This document shows, in pieces, positions 1-13,549 of a stretch of 64,000 nt of DNA (the stretch's first letter is position 1; each line of letters starts with the position of its first letter). The notes under the pieces were generated by a model. That model did not search any database. It saw nothing but the letters and a program-made list of their open reading frames with translations, and was not told where the DNA came from. The stretch lies in the NCBI GenBank assembly GCA_017399025.1, contig JAFQEK010000126.1:3197-67196 (forward strand), written 5' to 3'. This DNA comes from Clostridia bacterium. Its GTDB lineage: Bacteria > Bacillota > Clostridia > Oscillospirales > CAG-272. A program made the position numbers and the translations under genes.

Positions 1-1476
1 CACGGCAAAACCGTGGGGAATTCGATAATCCGATTTTCCCTCGATGATCGGACTGAACGTATGTCCGAAATCCATCAATCTTCGCAATTCCTTTTGCTCG
101 TAAAAATTGCTGTGCAAATTCATCATCATGGTTTGAATGGCAAGATCCGTAATGATCTGAAAATCTTCGAGCAATCTTACGTTCGTCCTGAGAGAAAGCG
201 GAGAAAATGCGGTTTCTGCATGGGAAAACGACGAAACGATCTGCGGACAATCCGCAATCCCCGCTTTTAGAATTTCCGAAATACCGCAAACGAAATCCTC
301 CTGCGGCAGAGAAAACAAGAAATCCGTACAATTGATGACTAAAGAGGGAGGATAAAACGATCCCAATAAATTTTTACTGCTTTTATAGTTGATGCCCACC
401 TTAATACCAACGCCTGCATCGATTTGACCGACCAATGTTGTGGGAATCCTGTAATAGGAAACCATTCTTCGGTATTGCTGCGCCGCAAACCCAACAGTAT
501 CCAAAATCACGCCGCCGATACCGATCATTACGCCGTCTCTCGGCAGAGCGGTTTCCATTGCGCGAACAATAACCTTTTCCAGATTTTCCGCATCCTTCTT
601 TTCCCCACCATCTTCCAAAGGAGAAAGTTTCAGAATGTTGTAATCGGTATTTTCAAATATTTCACGAACTTTCCTTTCCAAACCGCCCCCATACAATGCA
701 TCCAGATGCCCGTCCAGCACGACGAGTGCTTTTTTACCGTCAAGTTCCTTCAAAAGGATATCACGCGCCATGAGAAACGAAGGCACACGAAAAATCGGAA
801 ATGCATGCCTGTGAGAGGTATTGACCGACAGCACGGGACTGTTGCCATAAACACCCGTATAAATACCATCGTTATCTTCCCCGCACTTTTGAAGATATGC
901 ATAAAGTCCGAGCAAGTTTTGCGTGCTTTCTCTTTCTGCATCGGCATCTGTGAAAAATTTCTTTTCTGACTTTTTTTGAAGCACAGCAAGGAAATCCTTG
1001 CGTAAAGCTGTAAATTCCACTCCGCCGAGACGGCTGAAAGAAATCAGCATCGTTTCCAACCCCATTGCAAGCGCAATCGGCATAATGCCGGCACAGCTGC
1101 GGTTCATAAACAAAAGCGTTCTGCTTCCATACCTATTTTTCAGGAAAGTACCGATATTGAGGGAAGTCCTTGAAGGATTCCCGTTATCATCCGAGAAAGG
1201 GGCCCAAACCCCCTCCTCACTGATCTCTCCCGTAGCGCAAACCGCAATCGGCAACAAAAACGGATGGATTTGCGGATAAACATCCCGTACATTTTGCGCA
1301 GTCAGGTCAAAAGACTGACCAAGCATAGAAAAAACGCAATCAGGGAACTTCGTTTTTTCATCGGCATATTTCAGAAAACATGCTTTATGAAAAATTCCCC
1401 GATGCAGATATCCGCCAAAAATACCTTTCTCACTAATATCTGCCGCAAGCAATATATAATTTTCCGTAAATGCCAA
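1..1476 (-). CDS. DHQS-fold (sugar-phosphate-cyclase-like) protein, paralog 2, with a ~225-aa unrecognised N-terminal extension. The C-terminus lies beyond the window edge.
   Basis: This ORF is absent from the ORF track because it has no stop codon inside the window. I translated the minus strand myself. Reading from TTG 1476 (AAGGAGG at 1484-1490, 7-nt spacer), the frame stays open for 492 codons down to nt 1. The motifs GIGGGVILDTVGFAAQQY, RIPTTLVGQIDAGVGIKVGINYKSSKNLLGSFYPP and DFGHTF...IPHGFAV fit the dehydroquinate-synthase fold, and the protein is a clear paralog of 5216-6970. All the short plus-strand ORFs listed in 13-1518 are shadows of this gene. Confidence 0.75.
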   Translation of the reverse strand, partial: MAFTENYILLAADISEKGIFGGYLHRGIFHKACFLKYADEKTKFPDCVFSMLGQSFDLTAQNVRDVYPQIHPFLLPIAVCATGEISEEGVWAPFSDDNGNPSRTSLNIGTFLKNRYGSRTLLFMNRSCAGIMPIALAMGLETMLISFSRLGGVEFTALRKDFLAVLQKKSEKKFFTDADAERESTQNLLGLYAYLQKCGEDNDGIYTGVYGNSPVLSVNTSHRHAFPIFRVPSFLMARDILLKELDGKKALVVLDGHLDALYGGGLERKVREIFENTDYNILKLSPLEDGGEKKDAENLEKVIVRAMETALPRDGVMIGIGGVILDTVGFAAQQYRRMVSYYRIPTTLVGQIDAGVGIKVGINYKSSKNLLGSFYPPSLVINCTDFLFSLPQEDFVCGISEILKAGIADCPQIVSSFSHAETAFSPLSLRTNVRLLEDFQIITDLAIQTMMMNLHSNFYEQKELRRLMDFGHTFSPIIEGKSDYRIPHGFAV

Positions 1477-1489
1477 ATCCAACCCTCCT

Positions 1490-4400
1490 TTATCGGTACA
1501 TTTCTACCAATCGTTTGATTTCCGTGTTTTGCTCCTCATTCTGAATCAGCTTGCAATTTTTCACAAATAAACCGGGAACAAACTCTATTTCTCCGCAAAT
1601 CTGAAGTTTTTCCGGAGAAAACAAAATTTCTTTGATTTTTCCGTCCTCGGAATAAGAGATGAAATGCGAATCATCCGTTTTCTTCAAAATGAAAATACGG
1701 GAATCATGTGGTTTTTCTTCCAAAATCTTCTCTGCCCCCCGATAAACCAATAATTCTCCTTTGGCATTGGATAACACCATGAATGCACCGAACGTAATCA
1801 CGGAATACAAAGAGGACGGAACACCTTTCAAATAATTGTCTTTTGCAAATATGCCCGTTTCATTTTTCCCATTGACAACGGAAAACGCATTGACATAACC
1901 CTTTCGTGAAGAAACAATCAAAGTTTTCCGTCCGGAATCGCTGTCACACATTTCAGCCGCGCAATAGGGCCAATCTCCTCGCGCGCGTTCGCTTTCCTGC
2001 AAAACTGCATTGGTCAGCATAGCGCAGACTTTCAATCTGCCATTTTCTGTTTTCCATATGCCGATTTTGTTTGTCCAATGTAAACTGACAATCAGATCGC
2101 AACCGTTGTGATCTGGCATATAATAGATGCTGTTGACGGCAGTTCCGGGAATTCTCTCATGCGTGCAAAACGCAGTATTGGAATCCAGTTGTCTGATCTG
2201 ACCGTTTTCCGCCGACCACAGGAAAACCTCATTGGAAGAATTGATACTGACGAAAAGATTTTCTCCCACCGTTTCTACGTCGTCCATACAGATTCCCGTT
2301 TTGGGTGTTCTGCTCAATATCTTTCGTTTTTCGATATCCCATAGAGAAAGACTTCCGTCAATCAAAGCCGAAACCAAATATTTTCCGTTCAATTCGCAAA
2401 TGGAATACGCTCGGATGTCATTGTCAAACAAAAACCATTCGAAAGCATTGTTTTTCAGAGAAAAACGCTTAATACTGCCGTCCGTACTCGGAAGATACAA
2501 GCTTTCTCCTTTCGCAGAGTGCAGGATTTTACGAATCCAATAGGATTCGCCCTTGAAACAGTCAATAACTTCTCCCTGTTTCATATCATAAATTTTGATG
2601 GAAAAATCACGGGAAGCTGTAATGATCAACCCGTTTCTCACGATAATATCTTCAATCACATCGTCGTGCGTATACAAACATTCGTAGGTTTCCCTGTTCA
2701 GATTCCAAAGGACGACACTGTGATCCTGATAAACGGCAACGGATTTTCTGAAATTTTCGCAATAAACTGCCTTGAGCGGAATGGAATCAGGATATTCCAA
2801 TCTTTTTGTTTCTTCCGTATCTTCATCGTACAGCATCAAGGTATCCGTAACCAAAAGCCATTCGCATTCATCCGTCTCGGTATTCAGATCCATCCATTGA
2901 ATTTCACCCACATTGTCTATTTCCGTACGGAATGATCCCGTCTCCGGATTCAATTCTTTGATTTGTCCCGACTCCGTGCAAACGTATGCTTTTCCGGCAT
3001 ACGTATTGTATTTTGCCGTAATGATTTTTTCATTCAGATCCGCCAAGGAAACAATCTTGTCCAATGCAAAACCGGAACGGAAAACCTTTCCGTCTTCGGT
3101 AAACAAGAGAATCTCCTCCTGCATTTTTTCCATGCGGATGACTGCGCGATTGCAAATTTGTTTTTCGGCGACTGTTTGCAGATAATGTTCTTTTGTGATC
3201 CGAATTCGAAGCACAAAACCATCCGATGTGGAAGCATAAACGAATCCGTTTATATATTCTACGCAAACCGCCTGCTCATGTCCCGACGGCAGCGTAAATT
3301 CACAATAGCTCAAGGGAACATTCCATAATTTGATTTTTCCGTCTCTTCCGCACGAAACAAAGATGTCATTATCGATTTCCGCAATGGAAAATACCCATTG
3401 TAAATGACCTTGCGGAAGGAAACGCAAATAATCAATACGGCAATTTTCAATCCGTGTATTAACGGTTTTGTTTCCGCGGTTCTGAGAAAGAAGGATCCCG
3501 TTCAGACCGTATCCCGACAAGTCAAGATTGCGGTAACGGTAGCCGTAAAGTCCTCCGTGAACTTTCAGCATGAGATCGAACAAATTTCGCACTGCAAGAT
3601 AATAACCCGGTACTTGACGATCCACAAAGCTGACCGCCGTAATGATTTCATGAATATGTTTGCCAGAATCCGTCTGCGCTTCGCCGTTTCCGTCATGCAA
3701 AATCTCTTCTCCGTAGAGCTGGCAGAAATAAACGGCGATCGTATTCGGCATGATTCTGTAAAAAAGATCCGATTTTTCCAATTGCAGATGTGTCTGATTG
3801 TAAATATGCAGCGCACTGAAAAAATCACGGAAAATCTGATGGTAAAAACTGTAACTGACACCGCGCCGTTCTCCGCCACGCATATTATTTTTGACAATGA
3901 CCGCAAGATCCTTTACAATATGGCTTTCAATCTGGCTAACGGGAATATTTTTTGTCAGTTCCAAAATTTCATCGTATTCATCATTGTCGATATCCAACAA
4001 CTCTTCAACGGATTCCAATCGGTCAACACGCAAAACCTCTTTCAGAAACTCCATAGCCTGTATGACAGATTTTCTAAGCTGCTCTCCATTGATATTAAAT
4101 ACGCATTGCGTTTCCATACTGTATCCGATGTACGGCAGAATCAAACGGTAGATCAGTTTTTCTTTTACATCGGAGGAACGCTTTTCCTGACACAGGCAAT
4201 ATTCCCGCAAAAGCATTCCCTCATTGGTCAGACTGCTGACTTTATCCGCATCGGAACGTTCCGTTCCGATTTGCTTATAAATGGAAAACATCATCGGATT
4301 CTGAATGATCTTCAAAAGTACGGGAGAAGCGGGGACCTGTAACCCCGCACGCAGAAGGAGATTTTTGACCGTTTCCTCCGAAAATCCGTGAACCGTCACC

Positions 4401-5200
4401 TTGAATAGCTCCAATCGGTCCGCGCCTTTGGTTTCACAACGGCTCGTGAGAACCATTTTCACATTGGGAAGCTCTTCCAATTTCGAAATATCCGCAAGAA
4501 TCCGTTCACGGTCCTTTTCATCGCGGAGTTCGTTGAAACCGTCTAACAGCAGGATAAAGCAGAATTTAGGATAACTGCGGAAATACTTGATCAATGTTTT
4601 CTGCGCTTCTTCTCCGACGGTGTCCCGGTTCCAATATTCCTTGCAAAGCGTTTCGGAAACGAAATATTCTCCGTCATGGTTCACGATTTTATTGAGCGCT
4701 ATAAAAAACGGCAATCGGCGTCCTTTGACCGCACCCCGTTTTCCGTTGGCAAGCGAACGGTAGACTACATATTGAAGCATGGTCGTTTTTCCTGCGCCTC
4801 CCGTAGCGACAATTTCAATATTTTTTTCTTTGGCAAGGACATCTTCAAGCTTTTCATATTCACCGTCTTCGCCCTCAATCTTCGGAAAAACAATATCTCT
4901 GTAAAATGACTCGCTGTACCCCTTATTTTTTATATGTTCCGAAAGCTGCGTTTCCATGCGTGCCGCTACAGGTTTCAATTTTCTGTTCTTGATAAACGAC
5001 ATTTTGCTGATCAGAATACCTAAAATCAAGAGCACGAGCAAGCTTAACGCAAGAATCAGTGCGATCTCCGGTCCCCAGCCAAGCAAGAAACTTCCGGCAG
5101 CTGAAAGTACGGGAACAATCAACGTTACCAAAAAGTCCTTTATCAAATCTAACACAACATCACTACTGATATCTTTTAATTTTTCTTTGATGTTTGCCAT
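1490..5200 (-). CDS. Membrane-anchored STAND NTPase: two N-terminal TM helices, a NACHT P-loop module, a helical linker and a double WD40-like beta-propeller.
   Basis: The ORF is 1236 aa. Hydrophobic helices lie at about aa 22-42 and 45-66. Walker A is VATGGAGKTT (aa 131-140, nt 4781-4810). Walker B is FILLLDGFNE (aa 215-224), the NACHT-type hhhhDGhDE pattern. The C-terminal ~640 aa contain about 13 blade-end motifs (GRDGKIKLWNV, DHSVVLWNL, SRDFSIKIYDM, STDGSIKRFSL, IDGSLSLWDI, NEVFLWSA, NKIGIWKT, SEDGKIKEILF and others). ATG 5200 lies 15 nt after the upstream stop, and the TAA stop at 1490-1492 overlaps the RBS of the next gene. Confidence 0.85.
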   Translation of the reverse strand: MANIKEKLKDISSDVVLDLIKDFLVTLIVPVLSAAGSFLLGWGPEIALILALSLLVLLILGILISKMSFIKNRKLKPVAARMETQLSEHIKNKGYSESFYRDIVFPKIEGEDGEYEKLEDVLAKEKNIEIVATGGAGKTTMLQYVVYRSLANGKRGAVKGRRLPFFIALNKIVNHDGEYFVSETLCKEYWNRDTVGEEAQKTLIKYFRSYPKFCFILLLDGFNELRDEKDRERILADISKLEELPNVKMVLTSRCETKGADRLELFKVTVHGFSEETVKNLLLRAGLQVPASPVLLKIIQNPMMFSIYKQIGTERSDADKVSSLTNEGMLLREYCLCQEKRSSDVKEKLIYRLILPYIGYSMETQCVFNINGEQLRKSVIQAMEFLKEVLRVDRLESVEELLDIDNDEYDEILELTKNIPVSQIESHIVKDLAVIVKNNMRGGERRGVSYSFYHQIFRDFFSALHIYNQTHLQLEKSDLFYRIMPNTIAVYFCQLYGEEILHDGNGEAQTDSGKHIHEIITAVSFVDRQVPGYYLAVRNLFDLMLKVHGGLYGYRYRNLDLSGYGLNGILLSQNRGNKTVNTRIENCRIDYLRFLPQGHLQWVFSIAEIDNDIFVSCGRDGKIKLWNVPLSYCEFTLPSGHEQAVCVEYINGFVYASTSDGFVLRIRITKEHYLQTVAEKQICNRAVIRMEKMQEEILLFTEDGKVFRSGFALDKIVSLADLNEKIITAKYNTYAGKAYVCTESGQIKELNPETGSFRTEIDNVGEIQWMDLNTETDECEWLLVTDTLMLYDEDTEETKRLEYPDSIPLKAVYCENFRKSVAVYQDHSVVLWNLNRETYECLYTHDDVIEDIIVRNGLIITASRDFSIKIYDMKQGEVIDCFKGESYWIRKILHSAKGESLYLPSTDGSIKRFSLKNNAFEWFLFDNDIRAYSICELNGKYLVSALIDGSLSLWDIEKRKILSRTPKTGICMDDVETVGENLFVSINSSNEVFLWSAENGQIRQLDSNTAFCTHERIPGTAVNSIYYMPDHNGCDLIVSLHWTNKIGIWKTENGRLKVCAMLTNAVLQESERARGDWPYCAAEMCDSDSGRKTLIVSSRKGYVNAFSVVNGKNETGIFAKDNYLKGVPSSLYSVITFGAFMVLSNAKGELLVYRGAEKILEEKPHDSRIFILKKTDDSHFISYSEDGKIKEILFSPEKLQICGEIEFVPGLFVKNCKLIQNEEQNTEIKRLVEMYR

Positions 5201-5215
5201 TGATGATTCATCCCT

Positions 5216-6970
5216 TCATTCAAAAATATGCGCAATCGCACACAAATCCCCGTATGCGAGGTCCATTTCCCGATAAAATTTTTCCTCGCTCCACACAGCA
5301 GTCAAATGTTCTCCGCAGTCTCGGCAGGAATCAAAGTTCAAAAAGCCGGCTTTCCCCTGACCGACAGGAACAACGAAATTCAAATTACCGTCCCTTTTAA
5401 CCAATATGGGCCCCACAAACGCATCTCGGATTCTTTCATATTCCTTTGCAAATATACGCAGACAAAACGGTTTTACGATACGGTATTTACGGAAAATCTC
5501 CAAAAGAAAACGATAATATTCTTCCGTAATCCAGCCATTGCGGTAAGACAATATCACACAAAACAGCATCTCCAATGCCACAGCATACCCATGGCTCATG
5601 CCGTTATTCTCCAGACATCCGATGAAAGAATGTCCGAAATCAAAATATCTGCCCTTGCTTTCCGTTTCATACGGATCGTTCTTCAGAAGATTCAAGATGG
5701 AAATTCCCGCTCGTGTTATAATTTCATAAAATAGTTTTCTCTGTTCCTTGCTTTTTCCGTTTTTAATCTTTTCAAAAAAATCCGCATCCAATCTCATGAG
5801 TTCTTTCAAAAGTCCGAAATCGCAGATCATGGCAATCTTGATAATTTCAGCAAGTCCGCATTCCGTCTTTTTCCGATTCAAAACTTCAATAAACTCGAAA
5901 GAATTGATCACAAATTCCGCAGGATAAAAAGAGCCCAGCAGATTTTTTCTGTTTGCATAATGAAACCCAACCTTGATACCGATTCCCGCATCGATCTGTC
6001 CGACCAGTGTCGCCGGAATTTTGATCCATGGAATCCCCCTTTTATAAAGCGATGCCGCGCAGCCCACAAGATCAAGCAACACGCCTCCGCCGATTGCCAC
6101 GGCGTAAGTATCTCTTGTCACATGATTTTCTATCATAATATCCAAAATCCGTTTCATGACACCGCTGTCCTTTTTTTCGCCGTTCGCGCCGTAGGTTGTG
6201 ATAGGAAATGCCTTGAAAACAATGGATTCTTCAAAAAATTTTTTGTAATATGCGGCCTTTTCGTCCGGCAAAGATTCAAAAAACACGCGGTCATAAAAAA
6301 CGATCGTTTTGTTTTTTTCAAAAAAATCCGAAACAGAGGAATTCTCCGTAAAACGTTCCGTGAAATAAACGTCGTACGCCAAATGTGCGCTCGGTGATGT
6401 ATGAATTCCGACCATCCCGTATTTTTCAATCAAACGGTTATTTTTTTCACGAAAAACAGGCTTGCCGGTTTCAAGATACGCAGAAATCAACGTTTCAACC
6501 GTACAGAAATGCATTTTACCGTCTGCGCAGATCAGAAAACCGTCCTGCCTGGCTTCCTTTTCTCCCGCATATACATAGGCATCCGAAAAAGCATCGTAAA
6601 GAAATTCCGTTCCGTTCGGAAATGAGCAGGTGTAATTTCTTCCCCGGATCGTCAAATGCAATTTGGCATAAACAGGAATCAGCGATTCCATATCGGTAAA
6701 AACAATATGCGTATGCGCGTATTCCTCCGTGCGAATCGAAAAACGCTGTTCCGCATAAAGAAAAATCTCCACAGCGTACAGCTTCTCCCAATATCCGATA
6801 TACGGAAGATCGGATAGCTTCTCTGCAATCACCTTGTCCAAAAGCATGATAAAAGCTTCTTTTTCATAGGACGGAATCGGCTCTTCCGTTGGCAAAATTC
6901 TTTTCCGTCCGTCCGATTCATAATAAAGAAAACGTATTTTATTTCCGCAAGCGTTCACAACAATTCTCAT
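5216..6970 (-). CDS. DHQS-fold (sugar-phosphate-cyclase-like) protein, paralog 1, with a ~200-aa unrecognised N-terminal extension.
   Basis: The ORF is 584 aa. The C-terminal ~385 aa carry AIGGGVLLDLVGCAASLY, KIPATLVGQIDAGIGIKVGFHYANRKNLLGSFYPA, FDFGHSFIGCLE and SHGYAVALE, which are the nucleotide-binding, Lys/Asn and metal-His motifs of the dehydroquinate synthase superfamily. I recognise no motif in the first ~200 aa. Confidence 0.8.
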   Translation of the reverse strand: MRIVVNACGNKIRFLYYESDGRKRILPTEEPIPSYEKEAFIMLLDKVIAEKLSDLPYIGYWEKLYAVEIFLYAEQRFSIRTEEYAHTHIVFTDMESLIPVYAKLHLTIRGRNYTCSFPNGTEFLYDAFSDAYVYAGEKEARQDGFLICADGKMHFCTVETLISAYLETGKPVFREKNNRLIEKYGMVGIHTSPSAHLAYDVYFTERFTENSSVSDFFEKNKTIVFYDRVFFESLPDEKAAYYKKFFEESIVFKAFPITTYGANGEKKDSGVMKRILDIMIENHVTRDTYAVAIGGGVLLDLVGCAASLYKRGIPWIKIPATLVGQIDAGIGIKVGFHYANRKNLLGSFYPAEFVINSFEFIEVLNRKKTECGLAEIIKIAMICDFGLLKELMRLDADFFEKIKNGKSKEQRKLFYEIITRAGISILNLLKNDPYETESKGRYFDFGHSFIGCLENNGMSHGYAVALEMLFCVILSYRNGWITEEYYRFLLEIFRKYRIVKPFCLRIFAKEYERIRDAFVGPILVKRDGNLNFVVPVGQGKAGFLNFDSCRDCGEHLTAVWSEEKFYREMDLAYGDLCAIAHIFE

Positions 6971-6991
6971 ACGGAAAATCCTTTCTTAAAT

Positions 6992-7735
6992 TTACTCCTT
7001 TACCCCCGGCGCTTCCGGCGGCGTTGTGGTCCGAAGCTCCAACTGGCTGATGCAAAGATTTTTAGAACCGAGCATAAGCTCTGCTACCGAAGCCACAGCT
7101 TCCGCCACGTCGGAAGGCGTCATTTTCAAATCCGCATTTGCGGAAAACCGTCTGGAAAAACCCGTGTTGACGCTGCCCAAAGAAACGTAAGTCACGCAAA
7201 TACCGTCTTTTCTGTATTCACAGAACAAATCCTCGGAAAAAGTTTTCAGAGAACCCTTGGAAGCGGCATACGCGATGTTCCCCGGGACATATTTTTCTAC
7301 CGAATAGCTTCCGATGTTCACAATAATGCCTTTGGGATACCCCTCGTTTTGCAAAAAAAGCGGAATCAGTTCTTCGCAAAGCATAACGGGTCCCATAAAA
7401 TTAACCGCAAAGATCCGCTGCCAGTCCTCCGCTCTTATATTTGTAAATGAATCAAAGACACCAACGCCCGCATTGTTGATCAGAATTTTCAGCGAACCGA
7501 GAGCATCCTGCGCAGAGGTTACAAACGTTTTGATCTGCGCTCCGTCGGCAACATTGCAAGCTCTCGCAAAATAACGGTTATCGGGGTATCTTTTTTTCAA
7601 TTCTTCCGAAAGCAAAAAACAGTCTTCCTCTCTCCCCGAACAAAACGCGATATCAAAGCCTCTTTGCGCAAATGCATAAACAAGCGATCTTCCGATGCCG
7701 CGCGTGGCTCCCGTAATCATAACTGCCGGTTTCAT
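6992..7735 (-). CDS. Short-chain dehydrogenase/reductase (classical SDR).
   Basis: The ORF is 247 aa and carries TGATRGIGRSL (TGxxxGxG), NNAG and YAASKGSL (YxxxK). Its ATG overlaps the cupin stop by 4 nt (ATGA, 7732-7735). Confidence 0.9.
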   Translation of the reverse strand: MKPAVMITGATRGIGRSLVYAFAQRGFDIAFCSGREEDCFLLSEELKKRYPDNRYFARACNVADGAQIKTFVTSAQDALGSLKILINNAGVGVFDSFTNIRAEDWQRIFAVNFMGPVMLCEELIPLFLQNEGYPKGIIVNIGSYSVEKYVPGNIAYAASKGSLKTFSEDLFCEYRKDGICVTYVSLGSVNTGFSRRFSANADLKMTPSDVAEAVASVAELMLGSKNLCISQLELRTTTPPEAPGVKE

Positions 7736-8079
7736 CCGTCCACCTTACCTTCAAACACCAGAATCACCAGATTTTCATCCGTATTATTTTCCAAACCGTG
7801 CCAATCTCCGTTGCGAGCAAGAATCACATCATTGGCGGAAACGCATTTTTTCGTTCCGTTCAGTGTAATTTTTCCCGAACCGGAAAGAATTACGTATACT
7901 TCTTCCGAACCGACGTGCTGATGATAACCGATCGTTGTTTTCGGAGGCATGACGGTATAATCCAAAAATTCAATTCCCGAGGCAAATTCCCGATCCAAAA
8001 CTCTGCGAAAAATAATTTCCCCTTTTCCTTCATGCGCAACGATATGCTCTGCGCTTTTCGTATATAAATTCGTGATCAT
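7732..8079 (-). CDS. Small metal-binding cupin (cupin_2-type; possible sugar isomerase/epimerase).
   Basis: GYHQHVGSEEVYVILSG (HxH...E) and GDWHGLEN (H...N) are the two cupin motifs. I prefer ATG 8079, which forms an ATGA overlap with the HAD stop at 8076-8078. The ORF-track start at 8145 would overlap the HAD gene by 70 nt. Confidence 0.8.
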   Translation of the reverse strand: MITNLYTKSAEHIVAHEGKGEIIFRRVLDREFASGIEFLDYTVMPPKTTIGYHQHVGSEEVYVILSGSGKITLNGTKKCVSANDVILARNGDWHGLENNTDENLVILVFEGKVDG

Positions 8080-9044
8080 TGAATCACACCGCTCCTTTTC
8101 ATATATTCTTCCGTACCCTTGCACAAATGCTGTTCGCCGTCCCATAAAACGACATTGAATCTTTCGGGAAGTTCCCCTTTCGGTTCCTCTCGGAAATCGA
8201 TTGCCCTCACATCATGCGGAAACGCTTCGCACATATGCGTATCCGTTCCGCCGTTAACGGTCGAAAATTTATCTCCCCAAATTTCCAGAGTCAAGGGCAT
8301 TTCCTCTTTTGAGGGAATGTTTTCCCAATACCCTGCCGCTTTTCCGTGATACATGATCGCTTCAATCGCGGTTGTTTTCGTTACACCCTTCACCGCAAAG
8401 TCCACAGCAAAGGTTCCTGCGGCTCTGGCGGTGATCGGAATATTCTTTTTCTCAAAAAGTTCGTTTGCATGCCGAATGATGGAAACACGCAAATCGCGGT
8501 CCGGCAATAAATAAGGAACTCTTTCCTTGAAATAACCGTACTGTTCATCATTCAGATTACAGCCGTTTACTACTTCAAAGGTAATCTGCGCCCTGCGATC
8601 CTCGTACATGATGATTTTCGGATCTCCTCCCGAAACCTCGGCAAACCGATCGCGCGGCATGGTTTCCAGTACGAGGAATCCGAAATCATCAATGATACCA
8701 CGGAGAATTTCTCTCCATTCCCGTTTCATTTCCTCAGTAAATTTGTCTTCATACATGCTGTAAAACGGCGCTTCTGCCAGTTTCCCGTCTGAAAACCCCC
8801 AGACCTCTGCGCCGCTGCAAGTGCCCAATAAAATCTGATTTCTGTATATAGGATGTAAACGACGGACAATTCTTTCGCAAATATTTTGTTCACCCTGTCC
8901 GCTTATGAAAAAAAAACGTTTTCCACGTTCAAGCATTGCGTTAAGTCCGCTAATAATGTTTTCGCTGGCGGGTTCATATACATCTGCCAAGGTATCGTCC
9001 ACGTCCGAAACGATAATCCTGAGCGAATTACGCATGGTAAGCAT
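8076..9044 (-). CDS. HAD-superfamily phosphatase with a large cap (HAD-IIB-like).
   Basis: The ORF is 322 aa. Motif I is SDVDDTL (DxDxT), followed by FISGQ and a C-terminal GDKFSTVNGGTDTHM acidic motif. GAAAGGAG lies 10 nt upstream of ATG 9044. This is the first gene after the promoter at 9090-9118. Confidence 0.75.
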   Translation of the reverse strand: MLTMRNSLRIIVSDVDDTLADVYEPASENIISGLNAMLERGKRFFFISGQGEQNICERIVRRLHPIYRNQILLGTCSGAEVWGFSDGKLAEAPFYSMYEDKFTEEMKREWREILRGIIDDFGFLVLETMPRDRFAEVSGGDPKIIMYEDRRAQITFEVVNGCNLNDEQYGYFKERVPYLLPDRDLRVSIIRHANELFEKKNIPITARAAGTFAVDFAVKGVTKTTAIEAIMYHGKAAGYWENIPSKEEMPLTLEIWGDKFSTVNGGTDTHMCEAFPHDVRAIDFREEPKGELPERFNVVLWDGEQHLCKGTEEYMKRSGVIQ

Positions 9045-9089
9045 TCCGAAAAAACTCCTTTCGTAAAAAGTATTTTAAGTTTTATATTC

Positions 9090-9118
9090 ATTATATCAGT
9101 TTTTCTGATATTTTTCAA
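9090..9118 (-). promoter_or_regulatory. Sigma-A-type promoter of the HAD-to-NACHT operon.
   Basis: The minus strand reads TTGAAA-17 nt-TATAAT (-35 at 9113-9118, -10 at 9090-9095), about 45 nt upstream of ATG 9044. Confidence 0.6.
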
Positions 9119-9256
9119 GGCAAAGCAAAGAGATTTCGCTGTACTTACCGAAATAAATCGGACGCTTTTTTATCTAAAGGAAAAATTTGAAATCGACACC
9201 GCGTTTTGACATAATTTTTATCAAAAGCATGTTATTCTTACATGTAAAGGATAGCA

Positions 9257-9370
9257 TTTTTTATTCTATAGGAAATTGTTCAAAACCGACCTCGCCGTTT
9301 TGCATTGCCTTGATACAGGAAAAGCTTATGCAGGAGAGCAATTTCCGGTGGGCATTGCCCGCTTTTTATT
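9257..9370 (-). repeat. ~114-nt intergenic element, copy 1. Its orientation is opposite to copies 2 and 3.
   Basis: The reverse complement aligns block by block with 28508-28621 and 50738-50850. The shared blocks are ATAAAAAGCGGGCAATGCCCACCGGA..., CTGTATCAAGGCAATGCAAAACGGCGAGG... and TTTTGAACAATTTCCTATAGAATAAAAAA. Confidence 0.75.
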
Positions 9371-9392
9371 TGCAAAACAGGGAGGATTCAAA

Positions 9393-9713
9393 ATGGAAGA
9401 AGCACTTCGTCTTTCTTACGGGGAAGACACACTGATTGCCTTTTTGGGCGGAGAACTTGACCATCACCGCGCAGTTTCCGTCCGTTCGCGGATCGACGAT
9501 GCTCTGTTCGAGCATTTACCGAAAAAACTCGTGATCGACATCGGACGCGTGGATTTTATGGACAGCTCCGGTCTCGGACTGATTATGGGACGGCTTGCCA
9601 AAACAAAAGAAATCGGCGCAGTTCTGGTTTTACAAAACCCGTCCTCACGCGTTATGCGCATGCTGAAAATGGCAAAGCTTGACCGTATGATCCAAACAAT
9701 CAAAAATCCATGA
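9393..9713 (+). CDS. spoIIAA: Anti-sigma-F factor antagonist SpoIIAA (STAS domain).
   Basis: MEEALRLSYGEDTLIAFLGGELDHHRA...DFMDSSGLGLIMGR is the STAS phospho-Ser motif. The RBS GGGAGGA lies 8 nt before ATG 9393. The gene sits upstream of spoIIAB and sigF. The ORF-track start at 9276 is an upstream extension that reads through the repeat. Confidence 0.9.
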   Translation: MEEALRLSYGEDTLIAFLGGELDHHRAVSVRSRIDDALFEHLPKKLVIDIGRVDFMDSSGLGLIMGRLAKTKEIGAVLVLQNPSSRVMRMLKMAKLDRMIQTIKNP

Positions 9714-9733
9714 TTCAGAAAGGATGTTTATAT

Positions 9734-10186
9734 ATGCCAAAAAAAGCCACAAATGAAATTCGATGCACATTTTTATCAAAATCCGAAAACGAAGCTTTGG
9801 CAAGGAGTATCATTTCCGGTTTTCTTTTGCCGTTGGACCCAACCGTGGACGAACTTGCGGATATTCGCTGTGCAATCAGTGAAGCGGTTACCAATTGCAT
9901 TGTCCACGGTTACCGCGGAACGGAAGGTATGATCATTTTGGGCGCAAAATCCTTTGACGACAGAAGCGTTCGGATCACCGTCATTGACCACGGCTGCGGT
10001 ATTGCAGACGTTGCACAGGCAAGAACGCCGCTTTTCACAACCTGTCCGGATGAGGACCGCTGCGGCATGGGATTTTCCATTATGGAAAGCTTTTCCGACC
10101 GTCTGACCGTTGTTTCCGCGCCCGGAAAAGGCACGCGGATCACGCTCACACGAAAACTGGCTTCACCTCTGAAGGGAAATACATAA
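9734..10186 (+). CDS. spoIIAB: Anti-sigma-F factor / serine kinase SpoIIAB.
   Basis: The HATPase_c motifs ISEAVTNCIVHGY, DHGCGI and GMGFSIM are present. The N-terminus aligns best from MPKKATNEIRCTF (ATG 9734, preceded by GAAAGGA). The alternative start is ATG 9710, which overlaps the spoIIAA stop. Confidence 0.88.
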   Translation: MPKKATNEIRCTFLSKSENEALARSIISGFLLPLDPTVDELADIRCAISEAVTNCIVHGYRGTEGMIILGAKSFDDRSVRITVIDHGCGIADVAQARTPLFTTCPDEDRCGMGFSIMESFSDRLTVVSAPGKGTRITLTRKLASPLKGNT

Positions 10187-10274
10187 CTTCGGAAAAGACA
10201 CTCCGAGATTTCCCCATCGGTAACAAACTCCGAGGAAAGGAGCCCGTTACAAAAATAAAAAACGGATAAAAATC

Positions 10275-11012
10275 ATGCCTGAACGTATGGAAATTGAAAA
10301 AAGCACCGACAATTTGGAATTGATACGGGAAGCCCAATCGGGCAACCGAAACGCCATGGAAAAACTCATTTCCCAAAATATGGGATTGGTAAAAAACGTT
10401 GCAAAACGCTTTATCGGCAGAAATGCGGAATACGAGGATCTTGTTCAGATCGGAACCATCGGTATGCTGAAAGCCGCAAAAAGCTTTGATCTGCAATTCG
10501 GGACCGCTTTTTCCACCTATGCCGTTCCTTTGATCATCGGCGAAATACGCCGTTTTCTCAGAGATGACGGAATGATCAAGGTCAGCCGCGATCTGCGAAA
10601 AAAGGGAACCGTGATCATGAAAGCCAAGGAAGATTTCATCAAAATGCATAGCAGAGAGCCAAAGCTTTCCGAGCTTGCCGAAGCCTGCGGAATGAACCCC
10701 GAAGAAATCGCTTACGCGCTCGATGCTGTTTGCCCTATCTATTCCCTGCAGGAAACGCTCGGAAACGACGAGGATGGCGCCACCTTGGAAGCGCTTACAC
10801 CCGCCAATGAAAACATCATCGAGGAAATGACAGACAAGCTGGCGCTTGCGGAAGCCATTTCCAAGCTTGACCAAAGAAGCCGCCAGATTATCCATCTTCG
10901 TTTTTACAAGGATCTTTCCCAACAGCAGACGGCGGAAATTCTCGGTATTACCCAAGTGAAGGTTTCCCGTGAAGAAAAGAAAATTTTTGAATTTCTGCGG
11001 AAACAATTTTAA
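10275..11012 (+). CDS. sigF: Sporulation sigma factor SigF.
   Basis: The ORF is 245 aa. Region 2 reads NMGLVKNVAKRF...YEDLVQIGTIGMLKAAKSFD and the region 4 HTH reads LSQQQTAEILGITQVKVSREEKK. It is the third gene of the spoIIA operon. Confidence 0.92.
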   Translation: MPERMEIEKSTDNLELIREAQSGNRNAMEKLISQNMGLVKNVAKRFIGRNAEYEDLVQIGTIGMLKAAKSFDLQFGTAFSTYAVPLIIGEIRRFLRDDGMIKVSRDLRKKGTVIMKAKEDFIKMHSREPKLSELAEACGMNPEEIAYALDAVCPIYSLQETLGNDEDGATLEALTPANENIIEEMTDKLALAEAISKLDQRSRQIIHLRFYKDLSQQQTAEILGITQVKVSREEKKIFEFLRKQF

Positions 11013-11068
11013 CTTTCATTTATCCGAAAACGCATTTTCTTGCAGGTAACTAACGGATAGTTTTCAAA

Positions 11069-11112
11069 AATACGGCATATCTCAAAATAGGTATGTCGTA
11101 TTTCTGTATTTG
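11069..11112 (+). terminator. Possible intrinsic terminator after sigF.
   Basis: AATACGGCATA-12 nt-TATGTCGTATT forms an 11-bp stem with one G-U pair, followed by TCTGTATTTGTG. The stem is AU-rich, so this is a weak call. Confidence 0.35.
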
Positions 11113-11129
11113 TGTCTACAAATGCAGTG

Positions 11130-11300
11130 CTTGTCAGGAAAAATGACAAGTCATAGATGAACAAAAGAAAAGGCTCCCTTGTACAAAGGGAGCTGACGCC
11201 GAAGGCGGCTGAGAGATTATTTTTGAGTAATTTAGAACTTTACAATCCCTCCGTTACGGCAAGCCGTGCCACCTCCCTTTACACAAGGGAGGCTTTTTCT
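11130..11300 (+). repeat. Hairpin-rich intergenic element (at least four stem-loops) ending in a terminator-like hairpin.
   Basis: The stem-loops are CTTGTCA-7-TGACAAG (about 11130-11150), GCTCCCTT-GTACA-AAGGGAGC (11173-11193), GCCG-AAGG-CGGC (11198-11209) and CCTCCCTT-TACAC-AAGGGAGG (11272-11292), the last followed by CTTTTTCT. Two of the stems share the arm CTCCCTT/AAGGGAG. The 74-aa ORF 11157-11381 is just a read-through of these hairpins. Confidence 0.55.
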
Positions 11301-11385
11301 ACCTCCCGGAAGGTAAAAGGTAAGCAAAAAGAGTTTTGGTTCGTAGCCATCTTTCCATACTCCTTGCCCTGCAAGGTATAGTGTG

Positions 11386-11961
11386 TTATGCCAAATAACT
11401 TGATACAATTTGTTTTGTCAACTCGAAATTCAAGTTGGGAAGAATTTCTGACAAGATTTCTTTTCCCTCGATTACTTTTCCCTCCTCGCATAACACAACA
11501 CCGGTTAAAAGTGCGAGAGTATTCTTCATTTCTTCGGTCGGCTCTATTTTTTCTTTATAAAGCTTCATTTGTTCAATATCTTTTTGCAGAACGTAATATA
11601 TACCGATCCAACAGTACTTTAAATTTTGTTGTTGTTCAAGCTTGTTTATGTGATCCCAAAACATATCGTATTTTGATAATCCCAAATAAGATATAGCAAG
11701 CCAAACATGAAAGGCTTCCATTTCCAGCTTTGTGCGTTTAACGCGGTATAATTTGTAACTACGTGTATAATATGTGATCAACTTGTTCGCAAGAAAAATC
11801 GATTTTTCATAATCGCCAGATTGACACAGCTTTTTCATTGAATTTATTTGTTTTGTTTTAACAATAGCCGTGAGCAGCACAGTAGCAGGAAGAATAACAA
11901 CAATAAAAATCAACAATGGTGCAAGATGAACTGTTGTATTTCCTATTTCGAAAGAAAGCAT
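11386..11961 (-). CDS. Hypothetical membrane-anchored protein (one N-terminal TM, helical-repeat-like remainder).
   Basis: The ORF is 191 aa. The N-terminal hydrophobic helix is LAPLLIFIVVILPATVLLTAIV, and the rest is helix-rich and Lys/Tyr/Leu-rich. The DNA is visibly AT-richer than its neighbours. I recognise no family motif. Confidence 0.5.
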   Translation of the reverse strand: MLSFEIGNTTVHLAPLLIFIVVILPATVLLTAIVKTKQINSMKKLCQSGDYEKSIFLANKLITYYTRSYKLYRVKRTKLEMEAFHVWLAISYLGLSKYDMFWDHINKLEQQQNLKYCWIGIYYVLQKDIEQMKLYKEKIEPTEEMKNTLALLTGVVLCEEGKVIEGKEILSEILPNLNFELTKQIVSSYLA

Positions 11962-11993
11962 AAACCCTCCTTATCTGCCTTGGATTTTTATTT

Positions 11994-12386
11994 TCAAGAC
12001 AAACGGAACCCATTCGGCAAAAGTGCACCGAGCGTGGTTTCCGTATAATGGTCTTCAGTTCCTCCGCAAAGAACGATCAGATTTTCATCGCAAAATTCAT
12101 ACAAAACCTGTCTGCAAACACCGCAAGGTGTGGTCGTACTCTCTTCGGGCCCGACAATCGCAATGGCAATAAAATCCCTCACACCCTCGGAAACCGCTTT
12201 CGCAACCGCGCATCGTTCCGCGCAAAGAGTAGGGGAATAGGCAGAATTTTCGATATTGCAACCGGTAAAAATTCTTCCGTTCGCGCTCAGAAGCGCCGCA
12301 CCCACATGGAAATTGGAAAAGGGCGCATATGAAAATTTTCTTACTTCCATTGCCGCATGAAGCAAAGCTTTCCGATCAAAATTCAT
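11994..12386 (-). CDS. cdd: Cytidine deaminase.
   Basis: The ORF is 130 aa and carries the zinc motifs CAERCAV and PCGVCRQ. Confidence 0.92.
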   Translation of the reverse strand: MNFDRKALLHAAMEVRKFSYAPFSNFHVGAALLSANGRIFTGCNIENSAYSPTLCAERCAVAKAVSEGVRDFIAIAIVGPEESTTTPCGVCRQVLYEFCDENLIVLCGGTEDHYTETTLGALLPNGFRLS

Positions 12387-13549
12387 TTTATCAAAACCTC
12401 TTTGAAGCTCTCGCCGTTCAGATCATAAGGAATGTCGAGCAAATCGGCAACCGTTGCCGCAACGTCCGAAAAAGATTCTCTCTCTCCGATATTCACGGGA
12501 TTAACGGCTTTTCCGTATACCAAGAGAGGCACGTTTTCTCTCGTATGATCCGTTCCCTTGTAGCCGGGATCGCAACCGTGATCTGCCGTAATCATCAGAA
12601 TATCGTCCTCACGTAAGCCACGGATAAAGCCGTCCAGCCACGTGTCAAGACGCATAACCGCCTCCGCATATCCCTTAGCATTGCGGCGGTGTCCGAAAAC
12701 CGTATCAAAATCCACGAAATTCACAAAGCAAAGTCCGTGAAAATCTCTGTCCAGAAGCGAAGACATGATTTCCATACCCTCGTCATTGCTGCCCGTACGA
12801 ATGGCTTCGGAAATACCGACACCCGCAAAAATATCGTTGATCTTTCCCACAGCGATGGTATCCAGACCGTGCTTTTGCAAAAGCTGTAAAACCGTTGTTT
12901 TCGGTGGAACGGCAGAATAATCATGTCTGTCTGCCGTGCGCTGATAAGGGTATTCTCCGATAAATGGGCGGGCAATCACTCTGCCCACACAATGCTCGCC
13001 GGAAAGCATTTCTCTTGCCATCTCACAGCAACGATAAAGCTCTGTAAGAGGAATTACGTCCGTATGCGCGGCAATCTGCATAACGCTGTCCACAGAAGTA
13101 TAAACGATCAGACCACCCGTTTCTCTCTGCTCGGCGGCATAATCCTTGATTACCTCCGTACCGGAATAAGCTTTGTTGCAAAGCACTTTCCTTCCCGTCC
13201 GATATTCAAATTCTTCTATGATCTCGGGCGGAAATCCATTCGGATATGTCGGGAGAGGTTCTTCGGAACGAATTCCCGCAAGCTCCCAGTGCCCGATCGT
13301 ACTGTCTTTTCCTTCCGATTGTTCACAAACTCTGGCATAAGCGCCGATCGGCTCTGCCTTGGAAAAGCTGTGGTCCGTACCGTTGATATGAAACAGTCCG
13401 AGACTGTCCAGAGCGGGAACGGAAAAGCCTTCCACACGCATCAAAGACCGCAAGGTATCACACCCTTCATCTCCGAACCGAGCCGCATCCTTTGCGCCTC
13501 CAATACCAAAACTATCCATAACCATCAAAAAAATACGTTTGGTTTTCAT
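12383..13549 (-). CDS. deoB: Phosphopentomutase.
   Basis: The ORF is 388 aa. It has the MVMDSFGIGGAKDA N-terminus, the TADHGCDP motif and the typical length. It overlaps cdd by 4 nt. Confidence 0.92.
   Translation of the reverse strand: MKTKRIFLMVMDSFGIGGAKDAARFGDEGCDTLRSLMRVEGFSVPALDSLGLFHINGTDHSFSKAEPIGAYARVCEQSEGKDSTIGHWELAGIRSEEPLPTYPNGFPPEIIEEFEYRTGRKVLCNKAYSGTEVIKDYAAEQRETGGLIVYTSVDSVMQIAAHTDVIPLTELYRCCEMAREMLSGEHCVGRVIARPFIGEYPYQRTADRHDYSAVPPKTTVLQLLQKHGLDTIAVGKINDIFAGVGISEAIRTGSNDEGMEIMSSLLDRDFHGLCFVNFVDFDTVFGHRRNAKGYAEAVMRLDTWLDGFIRGLREDDILMITADHGCDPGYKGTDHTRENVPLLVYGKAVNPVNIGERESFSDVAATVADLLDIPYDLNGESFKEVLIK

Follow-up and report, generated by a model that had tools for sequence, protein, structure and literature searches.

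A conserved operon places an NLR-like STAND NTPase among sugar-phosphate cyclases of a predicted cyclitol pathway

The left end of a 64,000-nucleotide stretch of contig JAFQEK010000126.1 from a Clostridia bacterium (assembly GCA_017399025.1), hereafter called the window, carries the gene for a STAND NTPase with NACHT and WD40 domains inside a tightly packed, same-strand unit of enzyme genes. The neighbours encode two proteins of the dehydroquinate synthase (DHQS) fold, referred to here as DHQS1 and DHQS2, a short-chain dehydrogenase/reductase (SDR), a small cupin, a HAD-like enzyme and a ROK kinase. Deeply diverged lineages, with STAND genes of two families, keep this pairing of a STAND gene with a particular clade of cyclases, an SDR and a ROK kinase, and functional coupling of the STAND protein and the enzymes is in our judgement very probably real. 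As a mechanism we favour, with a probability of roughly 40%, a cyclitol-gated STAND switch, in which the receptor would respond to a metabolite of the pathway encoded beside it.

Results

Conservation of the STAND-cyclase pairing

The cyclases linked to STAND genes all group together in a simple neighbour-joining tree of cyclase domains, in a single clade that is separate from the named 2-epi-5-epi-valiolone synthases (EEVS). Within this clade, 10 of the 11 lineages with readable context have a STAND gene inside the string of SDR, cyclase and ROK genes; it is of the NACHT-WD40 type in eight lineages and of the NB-ARC-TPR type in two. Outside the clade, STAND genes were scored by phmmer, hidden Markov models (HMMs) of the nucleotide-binding NOD region and a loose Walker A pattern, and none was found at the 79 cyclase/AroB loci among the matches listed from species-representative genomes. 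Fisher's test gave p = 1.6e-11, computed on 9 of 10 lineages with L111 not yet counted separately (related contigs and loci are cited by L numbers). In the opposite direction, a metagenome scan with the NOD alignment revealed the enzymes at only 1 of the 80 remote NACHT-WD40 loci among the matches listed, namely L111. The cyclase clade therefore goes with a STAND gene, while the STAND families themselves mostly live alone. Most gene contexts come from 11 look-ups, and both large scans are samples rather than exhaustive.

An earlier note on this DNA, made from the sequence alone, had held that the NACHT gene is embedded in the operon rather than appended to it, and had named as a test of its idea whether NACHT homologues ever neighbour the enzyme genes. 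They do, and the embedding holds as well: the same string of genes recurs at 41% NACHT identity (L002), in other flanks (L003) and in further lineages. It is very improbable that the juxtaposition is without functional meaning, a stand-alone, defence-type NACHT gene having been inserted into a metabolic operon and since carried along. This explanation draws on the fact that most NACHT relatives are stand-alone genes or form tandem arrays, and that published bNACHT genes are seldom found in operons. However, the pairing is still seen where identity has fallen to 27-41% and where the order of the genes has changed, and it is also kept where an unrelated STAND family occupies the corresponding place. 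The intergenic gaps are short in most loci (10-60 nt), the counts of 10/11 lineages and 0/79 listed loci are far from chance, and protein identities of 27-58% speak against recent copies of a single mobile element.

Several observations concern individual members of these families. The only STAND-less member of the clade is L009 (Candidatus Magnetobacterium), whose string (6843-12556) consists of genes for a 297-aa protein without assignment, a NUDIX protein, an SDR, a ROK~cyclase fusion (803 aa) and a ROK kinase, and which offers a natural "minus-STAND" comparator. Some remote NACHT-WD40 relatives occur as tandem arrays of two to three paralogues without enzyme genes (L131/L133, 5868-15872; L119, 7732-15256; L151); such arrays are the typical layout of diversifying NLR-like genes. 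In L005, the NACHT gene is followed on the same strand by genes for two large proteins without a Pfam match (8014-12340; 998 aa and >427 aa), which are not found in L111.

Anatomy of the operon

The genes form one tightly packed same-strand unit (Table 1). The six minus-strand genes placed here by the earlier note, with their overlaps and gaps, were confirmed by a base-by-base check of the junctions. ATGA stop/start overlaps lie at 8076-8079 and 7732-7735, the cupin gene thus overlapping both of its neighbours; the other junctions are gaps of 21, 15 and 13 nt, and the stop codon TAA of the NACHT gene sits within the AAGGAGG ahead of the TTG start of DHQS2. Pfam searches agreed with the domain calls of that note for the cupin (Cupin_2), the SDR (adh_short), the cyclases (DHQ_synthase and DHQS_C) and the STAND protein (NACHT and WD40). 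Its expectation that the operon extends further to the left was borne out by L001, a contig of a Clostridia metagenome assembly that encodes an identical NACHT protein and reaches past the left edge of the window. There, DHQS2 is complete at 617 aa, one further gene, encoding the ROK kinase, overlaps it by 20 nt, and opposite-strand genes come next; the unit therefore comprises seven genes and ~10.4 kb.

Table 1. Features of the operon in the window and gene orders of related cassettes (~ denotes a fusion)
Feature	Position	Strand	Assignment or gene order
HAD-IIB-like enzyme, 322 aa	8076..9044	-	No Pfam family; predicted sugar-phosphate mutase or phosphatase
Small cupin, 115 aa	7732..8079	-	Pfam Cupin_2, 7.9e-14; candidate sugar/cyclitol isomerase or epimerase
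SDR, 247 aa	6992..7735	-	Pfam adh_short, 1.4e-43
DHQS1, sugar-phosphate cyclase	5216..6970	-	Cyclase domain at residues ~190-584, N-extension of ~190 aa
STAND NTPase, NACHT-WD40, 1236 aa	1490..5200	-	Pfam NACHT and WD40
DHQS2, first 492 of 617 codons in the window	1..1476	-	TTG start; truncated, degenerate ROK-like N-domain (~aa 1-204) and SH7P-cyclase-like domain
Candidate sigma-A-type promoter, TTGAAA-17(TG)-TATAAT	9090..9118	-	~45 nt before the first start codon
ROK kinase, 328 aa, seventh gene	L001 15559-16545, beyond the left edge of the window		Matches PF00480
Cassette L002, 41% NACHT identity			HAD, cupin, HAD, SDR, cyclase, NACHT-WD40, ROK~cyclase, ROK
Cassette L003/L004, 83% NACHT identity			Same seven genes as the window, wholly different flanks
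Cassette L005			HAD~cyclase, ROK, NACHT-WD40
Cassette L111			HAD~cyclase, ROK, NACHT-WD40
Cassette L006			HAD, IMPase, Metallophos-NB-ARC-TPR, cupin, SDR, ROK~cyclase, ROK, DeoB-like mutase
Cassette L007/8			GHMP-like kinase, IMPase, NB-ARC-TPR, SDR, ROK~cyclase, ROK, Zn-ADH
Cassette L089/90			HAD-like, cupin, SDR, NACHT-WD40, WD40, ROK~cyclase, ROK, PGM
Cassette L091-93			110-aa protein, PGM, HAD-like, SDR, NACHT-WD40, ROK~cyclase, ROK
Cassette L094-96			HAD-like, SDR, NACHT-WD40, cyclase, ROK, SDR

Regarding the promoter that the earlier note had placed upstream of the HAD gene, the site with its extended TG is indeed the top promoter-like site in 1-9800 (11 of 12 matches). Since the total of such sites in the region is not in excess of the shuffled expectation (22 found, 17.5 ± 4.3 expected), an operon promoter at 9118-9090 is plausible and no more. 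The same note had seen no terminator within the operon, and this view stands: terminator-like matches inside the operon are at chance level (13 found, 10.8 ± 3.5 expected), and a candidate hairpin at the DHQS1/NACHT junction (5261-5226) was rejected because its folding is no better than that of shuffled sequences (z = -1.37).

The mechanically called open reading frame of the cupin begins at an upstream ATG at 8145 inside the HAD gene (7732-8145, 137 aa). The real start is likely the one at 8079 in the ATGA overlap, giving the 115-aa form, because the gene calls in all related contigs match it.

Divergent from the candidate promoter lies an operon of spoIIAA (STAS), spoIIAB (anti-sigma kinase) and a sigF-type sigma factor gene (9276-11012), from which the source of the DNA is read as an endospore-forming member of the Clostridia; this adjacency is not kept in L003 or other loci. 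A DeoB-like "Metalloenzyme" mutase gene is located 3.3 kb upstream of the operon (12383-13549, minus strand), beside a cytidine deaminase gene. Its product is very similar (4e-114) to the mutase encoded directly downstream of ROK in L006 (9708-10880), and a further DeoB-like copy flanks L111 (6817-7950). The mutase of the window may belong to plain nucleoside salvage or be a loosely linked member of the pathway.

STAND proteins

The STAND protein of the window scores above the Pfam thresholds for both NACHT (35.7 against 26.7 bits) and WD40 (34.8 against 27) and has the features of a NACHT-type STAND protein. Hydrophobic helices at ~aa 20-70 are followed by a NACHT NOD at ~aa 126-560, with Walker A GGAGKT and Walker B LLLDGFNE, and by WD40 repeats at ~aa 560-1236. 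Two N-terminal hydrophobic helices are predicted by hydropathy, and such helices are typical of the NACHT-type STAND proteins of the cassettes. These NACHT proteins are all mutually related and have the Walker B sequence LLLDGFNE in common, while the two NB-ARC-TPR proteins (L006 and L007) are related to each other only.

The N-terminal domains of the NB-ARC-TPR proteins are of other kinds. In L006, the N-domain is a calcineurin-like phosphoesterase (Metallophos) that matches the PADLOC candidate PDC-S60 (1.6e-31) and the model of the CBASS "Effector Endonuclease" (1e-25). The N-domain of L007 was read as DUF4062-like, with a weak, sub-threshold match to an NPHP3 domain as its sole database support. 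Weak matches to TPR_MalT were found in the TPR regions of both proteins. Pfam searches of the STAND proteins of the window, L005, L006, L007, L089, L091 and L094 revealed no helix-turn-helix (HTH) or SARP domain.

Comparison of the window protein with its L002 counterpart showed 38-45% identity in the WD40 region and 39-45% in the NOD, the transmembrane (TM) segment being most variable (10%). With conservation of the WD40 region as high as that of the NOD, an arms race with phage proteins is a poorer fit than a ligand or partner that stays constant. In L089 (12291-16032), a STAND protein of 928 aa is followed, after a gap of 223 nt, by a separate WD40 protein of 243 aa, which means either that the sensor is split or that the gene is frameshifted or truncated.

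The two cyclases

Both DHQS1 and DHQS2 score above the Pfam gathering thresholds for DHQ_synthase and DHQS_C (102.9 and 44.2 bits for DHQS1, 102.1 and 30.5 bits for DHQS2) and are members of the sugar phosphate cyclase superfamily (DHQS fold), with fold matches at TMt ~0.8. The residues K267, D327, K333, N343, E375, K378, H447 and H460 are invariant and include the metal ligands E/H/H and the catalytic K/D/N. The catalytic residues are thus kept in both cyclases. By sequence and fold, the top relatives in the PDB are the 2-epi-5-epi-valiolone synthase ValA (2e-35 with DHQS2) and DDGS, and the nearest named homologues are "sedoheptulose 7-phosphate cyclases" (SH7P cyclases). Together with the ROK kinase as seventh gene and a cupin-cyclase-ROK trio that is also found in a Bacillus cluster of the C7N type, this agrees with the cyclitol-type enzyme set proposed by the earlier note.

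A 14-residue active-site fingerprint for SH7P cyclases (EEVS/EVS/DDGS) was reportedly described by Kean et al. in 2014. We take residues N268, H275 and K356 of DHQS (A. nidulans numbering) to correspond to D281, P288 and H360 of ValA, and three fingerprint positions were placed through motif alignment and this presumed mapping. On that basis, DHQS2 and most relatives read D/P/H, like ValA, while DHQS1 and its L002 orthologue read D/G/K, differing from ValA at two positions. A difference in substrate or product between the two paralogues is therefore probable. SH7P is a possible substrate of the cyclases, and so is a hexose-6-phosphate, because mutases of the phosphoglucomutase/phosphomannomutase (PGM/PMM) type recur in the cassettes.

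It is extremely improbable that the DHQS-fold genes encode ordinary AroB enzymes of the shikimate pathway, as the Pfam name DHQ_synthase and the annotation "3-dehydroquinate synthase" of some relatives might suggest. With the NCBIfam model aroB (TIGR01357), DHQS1 and DHQS2 reach 160.6 and 158.0 bits, about half the cut-off of 305 bits, and under the presumed mapping the equivalents of N268, H275 and K356 read D/P/H in DHQS2 and D/G/K in DHQS1. The nearest named relatives and structures are SH7P cyclases, and the operon holds no other shikimate genes. The possibility of AroB identity, which the earlier note had named as a threat to its idea, is thus contradicted by score and by relatives.

DHQS2 of the window departs from its relatives in the NAD loop (residues ~318-326), where it reads GIGGV instead of the GGGV that is invariant in every relative, including the 76%-identical L003 orthologue. 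A read error was dismissed because the identical protein sequence is present on three contigs.

N-terminal extensions of the cyclases

Many relatives of the cyclases are ROK~cyclase fusions, and the N-domains of these fusions match stand-alone ROK proteins with 99.95% probability in hhalign. The N-extension of DHQS2 in turn matches the fusion N-domains over its first ~120 residues (95.9%). Since it is truncated and its DIGGT loop is lost, reading DISEKG, it is by its sequence a vestigial ROK domain and not a functional member of the ROK family.

A domain common to the N-extensions of both cyclases was considered and rejected, as BLASTP aligned the cyclase domains only. For the DHQS1 extension, assignment as a ROK or HAD domain was rejected likewise (hhalign at most 2% against stand-alone ROK, fusion N-domains and the DHQS2 extension), and an exhaustive HMMER search against 1.84 billion representatives gave no sequence outside the cluster of the extension itself, which is left as a domain without detectable relatives. 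The AlphaFold2 model of this extension begins with an ASKHA-like beta-beta-beta-alpha-beta-alpha-beta-alpha arrangement at low confidence (predicted local distance difference test score [pLDDT] of 53-80), and a fold search with the untrimmed DHQS1 model gave cyclase matches only.

In L005 and L111, the cyclase carries the HAD-like protein as its N-terminal domain. The existence of both HAD~cyclase and ROK~cyclase fusions implies that HAD, ROK and cyclase are functionally linked.

Accessory enzymes and the predicted pathway

The HAD-like protein falls below the threshold of the Pfam family Hydrolase_3 (16.8 against 20.9 bits) and is likewise sub-threshold in NCBIfam. Nevertheless, D14, D16 and T18 of the DxDxT motif, K223 and D258 are invariant in 44 homologues, and the AlphaFold2 model (pLDDT 95) has the features of HAD subfamily IIB. 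The top Foldseek matches are an atypical alpha-phosphoglucomutase (4bnd) and eukaryotic phosphomannomutases, with sugar phosphatases next. The protein had been called a HAD phosphatase; the HAD part of this call is upheld by motif, model and fold search, while in function it may be a phosphomutase rather than a phosphatase, judging from the modelled structure. The family has >255 members at 40-50% identity (P0136-P0255) and no Pfam model. In candidate phyla radiation (CPR) bacteria (Saccharibacteria, Curtissbacteria) and DPANN archaea, the gene stands alone among ribosomal and tRNA-synthetase genes (L178, L180-L182). Given its modelled fold, the protein may fill the place of the hexose-phosphate mutase that these reduced genomes otherwise lack.

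The cupin shows a weak Pfam match to the C-terminal domain of mannose-6-phosphate isomerase, and its gene adjoins that of the cyclase in many loci. An SDR gene is present in 9 of the 10 STAND-linked lineages; the L005 and L111 loci are cut upstream. The stand-alone ROK protein keeps the motifs DIGGT and GEIGH and the Cys/His zinc motif CxCG..H, and has the features of a ROK kinase.

Mutases of three families, HAD-IIB-like, PGM/PMM and DeoB-like, recur in the cassettes, which ties the pathway to the pools of sugar-1-phosphate and sugar-6-phosphate. The cassettes contain no gene for an aminotransferase, glycosyltransferase or nucleotidyltransferase, no transporter or export gene recurs across them, and tailoring genes are absent. 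From the lack of tailoring genes and of a recurrent transporter, the product is predicted to be, probably, a simple intracellular cyclitol or cyclitol phosphate. A protein of 109-110 aa without Pfam match is 62% identical across two lineages (L002, 12887-13216; L091, 146-478, also in L092 and L093); its gene, which is not found in the window, lies at the margin of the cassette, directly ahead of a PGM/PMM gene (79% identical).

These gene contents bear on another explanation, in which the cassette would be an ordinary specialised-metabolite cluster for a cyclitol and the STAND protein a cluster-situated regulator or scaffold tuned to nutrient or developmental state, with no part in conflict or cell death. 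There is precedent in STAND ATPases such as MalT and the LAL/AfsR regulators, which govern sugar regulons and biosynthetic clusters. An ordinary C7N/aminocyclitol-type cluster on a Bacillus plasmid has the cupin-cyclase-ROK trio at its core as well, the flanking genes of the cassettes are housekeeping or metabolic, and the sensor region is conserved. We nevertheless hold this explanation to be distinctly unlikely: by Pfam, the STAND proteins have no DNA-binding domain, and at their N-termini they have instead TM helices, a DUF4062-like domain or a nuclease-like Metallophos domain with homology to a CBASS effector, while the missing tailoring genes and the lack of a recurrent export gene do not agree with a secreted natural product.

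Defence context, mobility and literature

A PADLOC search of the seven proteins of the window gave nothing significant. Searches of plasmids and phages by tblastn with DHQS2 found only ordinary SH7P cyclases or AroB at <37% identity and no close copy. A transposase pair of the IS21 family is located ~500 nt downstream of the cassette in L091 (11296-12971) and also in L092; it comprises IstB and a transposase with rve and Mu-transposase C-terminal domains. Together with the differing flanks of L001 and L003, this suggests that the cassette moves between genomes.

In the literature, we found no paper that links STAND, NACHT, NLR or defence to dehydroquinate synthase, cyclitols, EEVS or sugar phosphate cyclases, and nothing relevant that pairs the cyclase with a cupin and ROK; NACHT and WD40 are also absent from a 2026 review on cyclitols as signalling molecules. 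The pairing of NACHT/STAND with cyclitol enzymes is thus apparently undescribed in PADLOC and in the literature searched, in line with the earlier note, whose author knew of no system of this composition.

The order of events could also be the reverse of that in the favoured switch. Here, the STAND protein would sense a phage protein or stress through its WD40 or TPR repeats, and the enzymes would form the effector arm: the activated STAND protein would recruit or activate the cyclase through the degenerate ROK-like or orphan N-domain, leading either to a toxic carbasugar antimetabolite as a chemical defence or to a drain of sugar phosphate and ATP by a kinase-phosphatase pair. Defences that deplete metabolites or produce antimetabolites are known, such as viperins, NADases and ATP nucleosidases. 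Members of the cyclase clade are almost never without a STAND partner, while the wider NACHT-WD40 family is mostly alone (enzymes at 1 of 80 listed loci), so that the enzymes look STAND-dependent; the non-catalytic-looking N-domains of the cyclases could be docking modules; and the kinase co-occurs with phosphatase-type enzymes (HAD, IMPase) in the cassettes L006 and L007/8. On the other hand, the STAND proteins bear effector-like N-domains of their own, which makes a multi-enzyme effector arm seem redundant, and a pathway of four to six enzymes would be slow for an acute response. The WD40 region also lacks the excess divergence expected of a sensor of phage proteins, and there is no defence-island context. 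Taken together, we regard this order as rather unlikely.

Discussion

Proposed mechanism

In the mechanism that we favour by analogy, the conserved seven-gene cassette would couple an NLR-like STAND NTPase, as an integral partner, to a short pathway from sugar phosphate to cyclitol. The ROK kinase and the mutase-type enzymes (HAD-IIB-like in the window, PGM/PMM or DeoB-like in relatives) would supply or recycle hexose or heptose phosphate, which the cyclase or cyclases would turn into a keto-cyclitol through transient use of NAD+. The cupin would then epimerise and the SDR reduce this keto-cyclitol. The repeat domain of the STAND protein would perceive the metabolite, or a cassette enzyme loaded with it, as MalT perceives maltotriose, and a nucleotide-dependent switch would drive the N-terminal output, i.e., the membrane helices here and the CBASS-effector-like phosphoesterase or DUF4062-like domain in relatives. 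The biological role could be defence against phages or competitors, dormancy, or signalling of nutrient status.

Several points weigh against this cyclitol-gated switch. The sensor type varies by lineage (WD40 or TPR), so that a single mode of ligand binding is not obvious. The one-glycine deletion in the GGGV NAD loop of DHQS2 means that the copy in the window may be impaired, and the clade member L009 has no STAND gene within 10 kb. In the relatives, PADLOC matched only the repeat regions and the Metallophos N-domain of L006, with no match to a NOD or to an enzyme. Furthermore, a location in defence islands, which the earlier note had suggested looking for, did not hold up: no defence islands are recognisable, and the flanks are metabolic or housekeeping (contexts of L001, L003, L089 and L094).

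A broader proposal is that the cassettes represent a new class of prokaryotic NLR-like immune or cell-fate systems, in which a sugar-derived cyclitol or cyclitol phosphate made by the enzymes of the operon would activate or license the STAND NTPase, and cell death or arrest would follow through its membrane or nuclease effector domain. We put this forward tentatively, as somewhat unlikely on the present evidence.

From animals and plants to fungi and bacteria, innate immunity has STAND/NLR proteins as its central switches. To our knowledge, those of bacteria have so far been described either as stand-alone, direct recognisers of phage proteins or, like MalT, as transcription factors. That an NLR-like protein and a cyclitol pathway are encoded in one conserved operon suggests that this class of receptors has a small-molecule input or output, a link not known to have been described before. 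If it is true that a cyclitol is the immune ligand, this would be categorically new: an NLR-type receptor would then have a carbasugar, and not a nucleotide, as its second messenger or sentinel metabolite. The analysis furthermore defines a new clade of sugar-phosphate cyclases and a large HAD-IIB family without a Pfam model, which is housekeeping-like in CPR bacteria. The natural HAD~cyclase and ROK~cyclase fusions can guide biochemistry, and since the whole unit is self-contained in ~10.4 kb, it is easily testable.

Comparison with known systems

The closest regulatory parallel is MalT, a STAND ATPase gated by maltotriose and encoded beside malPQ, whose products make and consume the inducer. 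In both cases, a STAND NTPase with a repeat sensor is genetically coupled to sugar enzymes able to generate its ligand, and the TPR regions of L006 and L007 weakly match TPR_MalT. Unlike MalT, the cassette STAND proteins lack a LuxR/HTH output and have TM helices, a nuclease-like phosphoesterase or a DUF4062-like domain instead. Their gene lies inside the enzyme operon, the enzymes are predicted to form cyclitols rather than process glucans, and the NACHT-WD40 proteins belong to another STAND family.

With bNACHT and Avs proteins, the cassette proteins have the overall architecture in common: an effector-like N-domain, a NOD of the NACHT or NB-ARC kind and, at the C-terminus, WD40 or TPR repeats. 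The N-domain of L006 is moreover homologous to the CBASS endonuclease effector and to PADLOC PDC-S60. In contrast to these defence proteins, the cassette gene is embedded in a conserved enzyme operon and has no PADLOC match to its NOD and no defence island around it.

On the side of the enzymes, the clusters for C7-cyclitols and C7N-aminocyclitols (validamycin with ValA, acarbose with Acb, and the Bacillus cupin-cyclase-ROK cluster) likewise encode an SH7P-cyclase-like enzyme, a ROK-family kinase, a cupin, an SDR and a HAD-type enzyme. They differ from the cassettes, which lack aminotransferases, glycosyltransferases and nucleotidyltransferases and which contain a STAND gene, found at 0 of the 79 other listed cyclase loci; the cassette cyclases also form their own clade, with degenerate ROK-like or orphan N-domains.

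Finally, the logic may be like that of CBASS, Thoeris, Pycsar and type III CRISPR systems, in which enzymes of an operon make a small molecule that is read by a receptor-effector, and one of the STAND N-domains is homologous to a CBASS effector. Here, however, the putative signal would be a sugar-derived cyclitol made in several steps rather than a nucleotide made by one enzyme, and the putative receptor a STAND NTPase rather than a SAVED, CARF, SLOG or STING protein.

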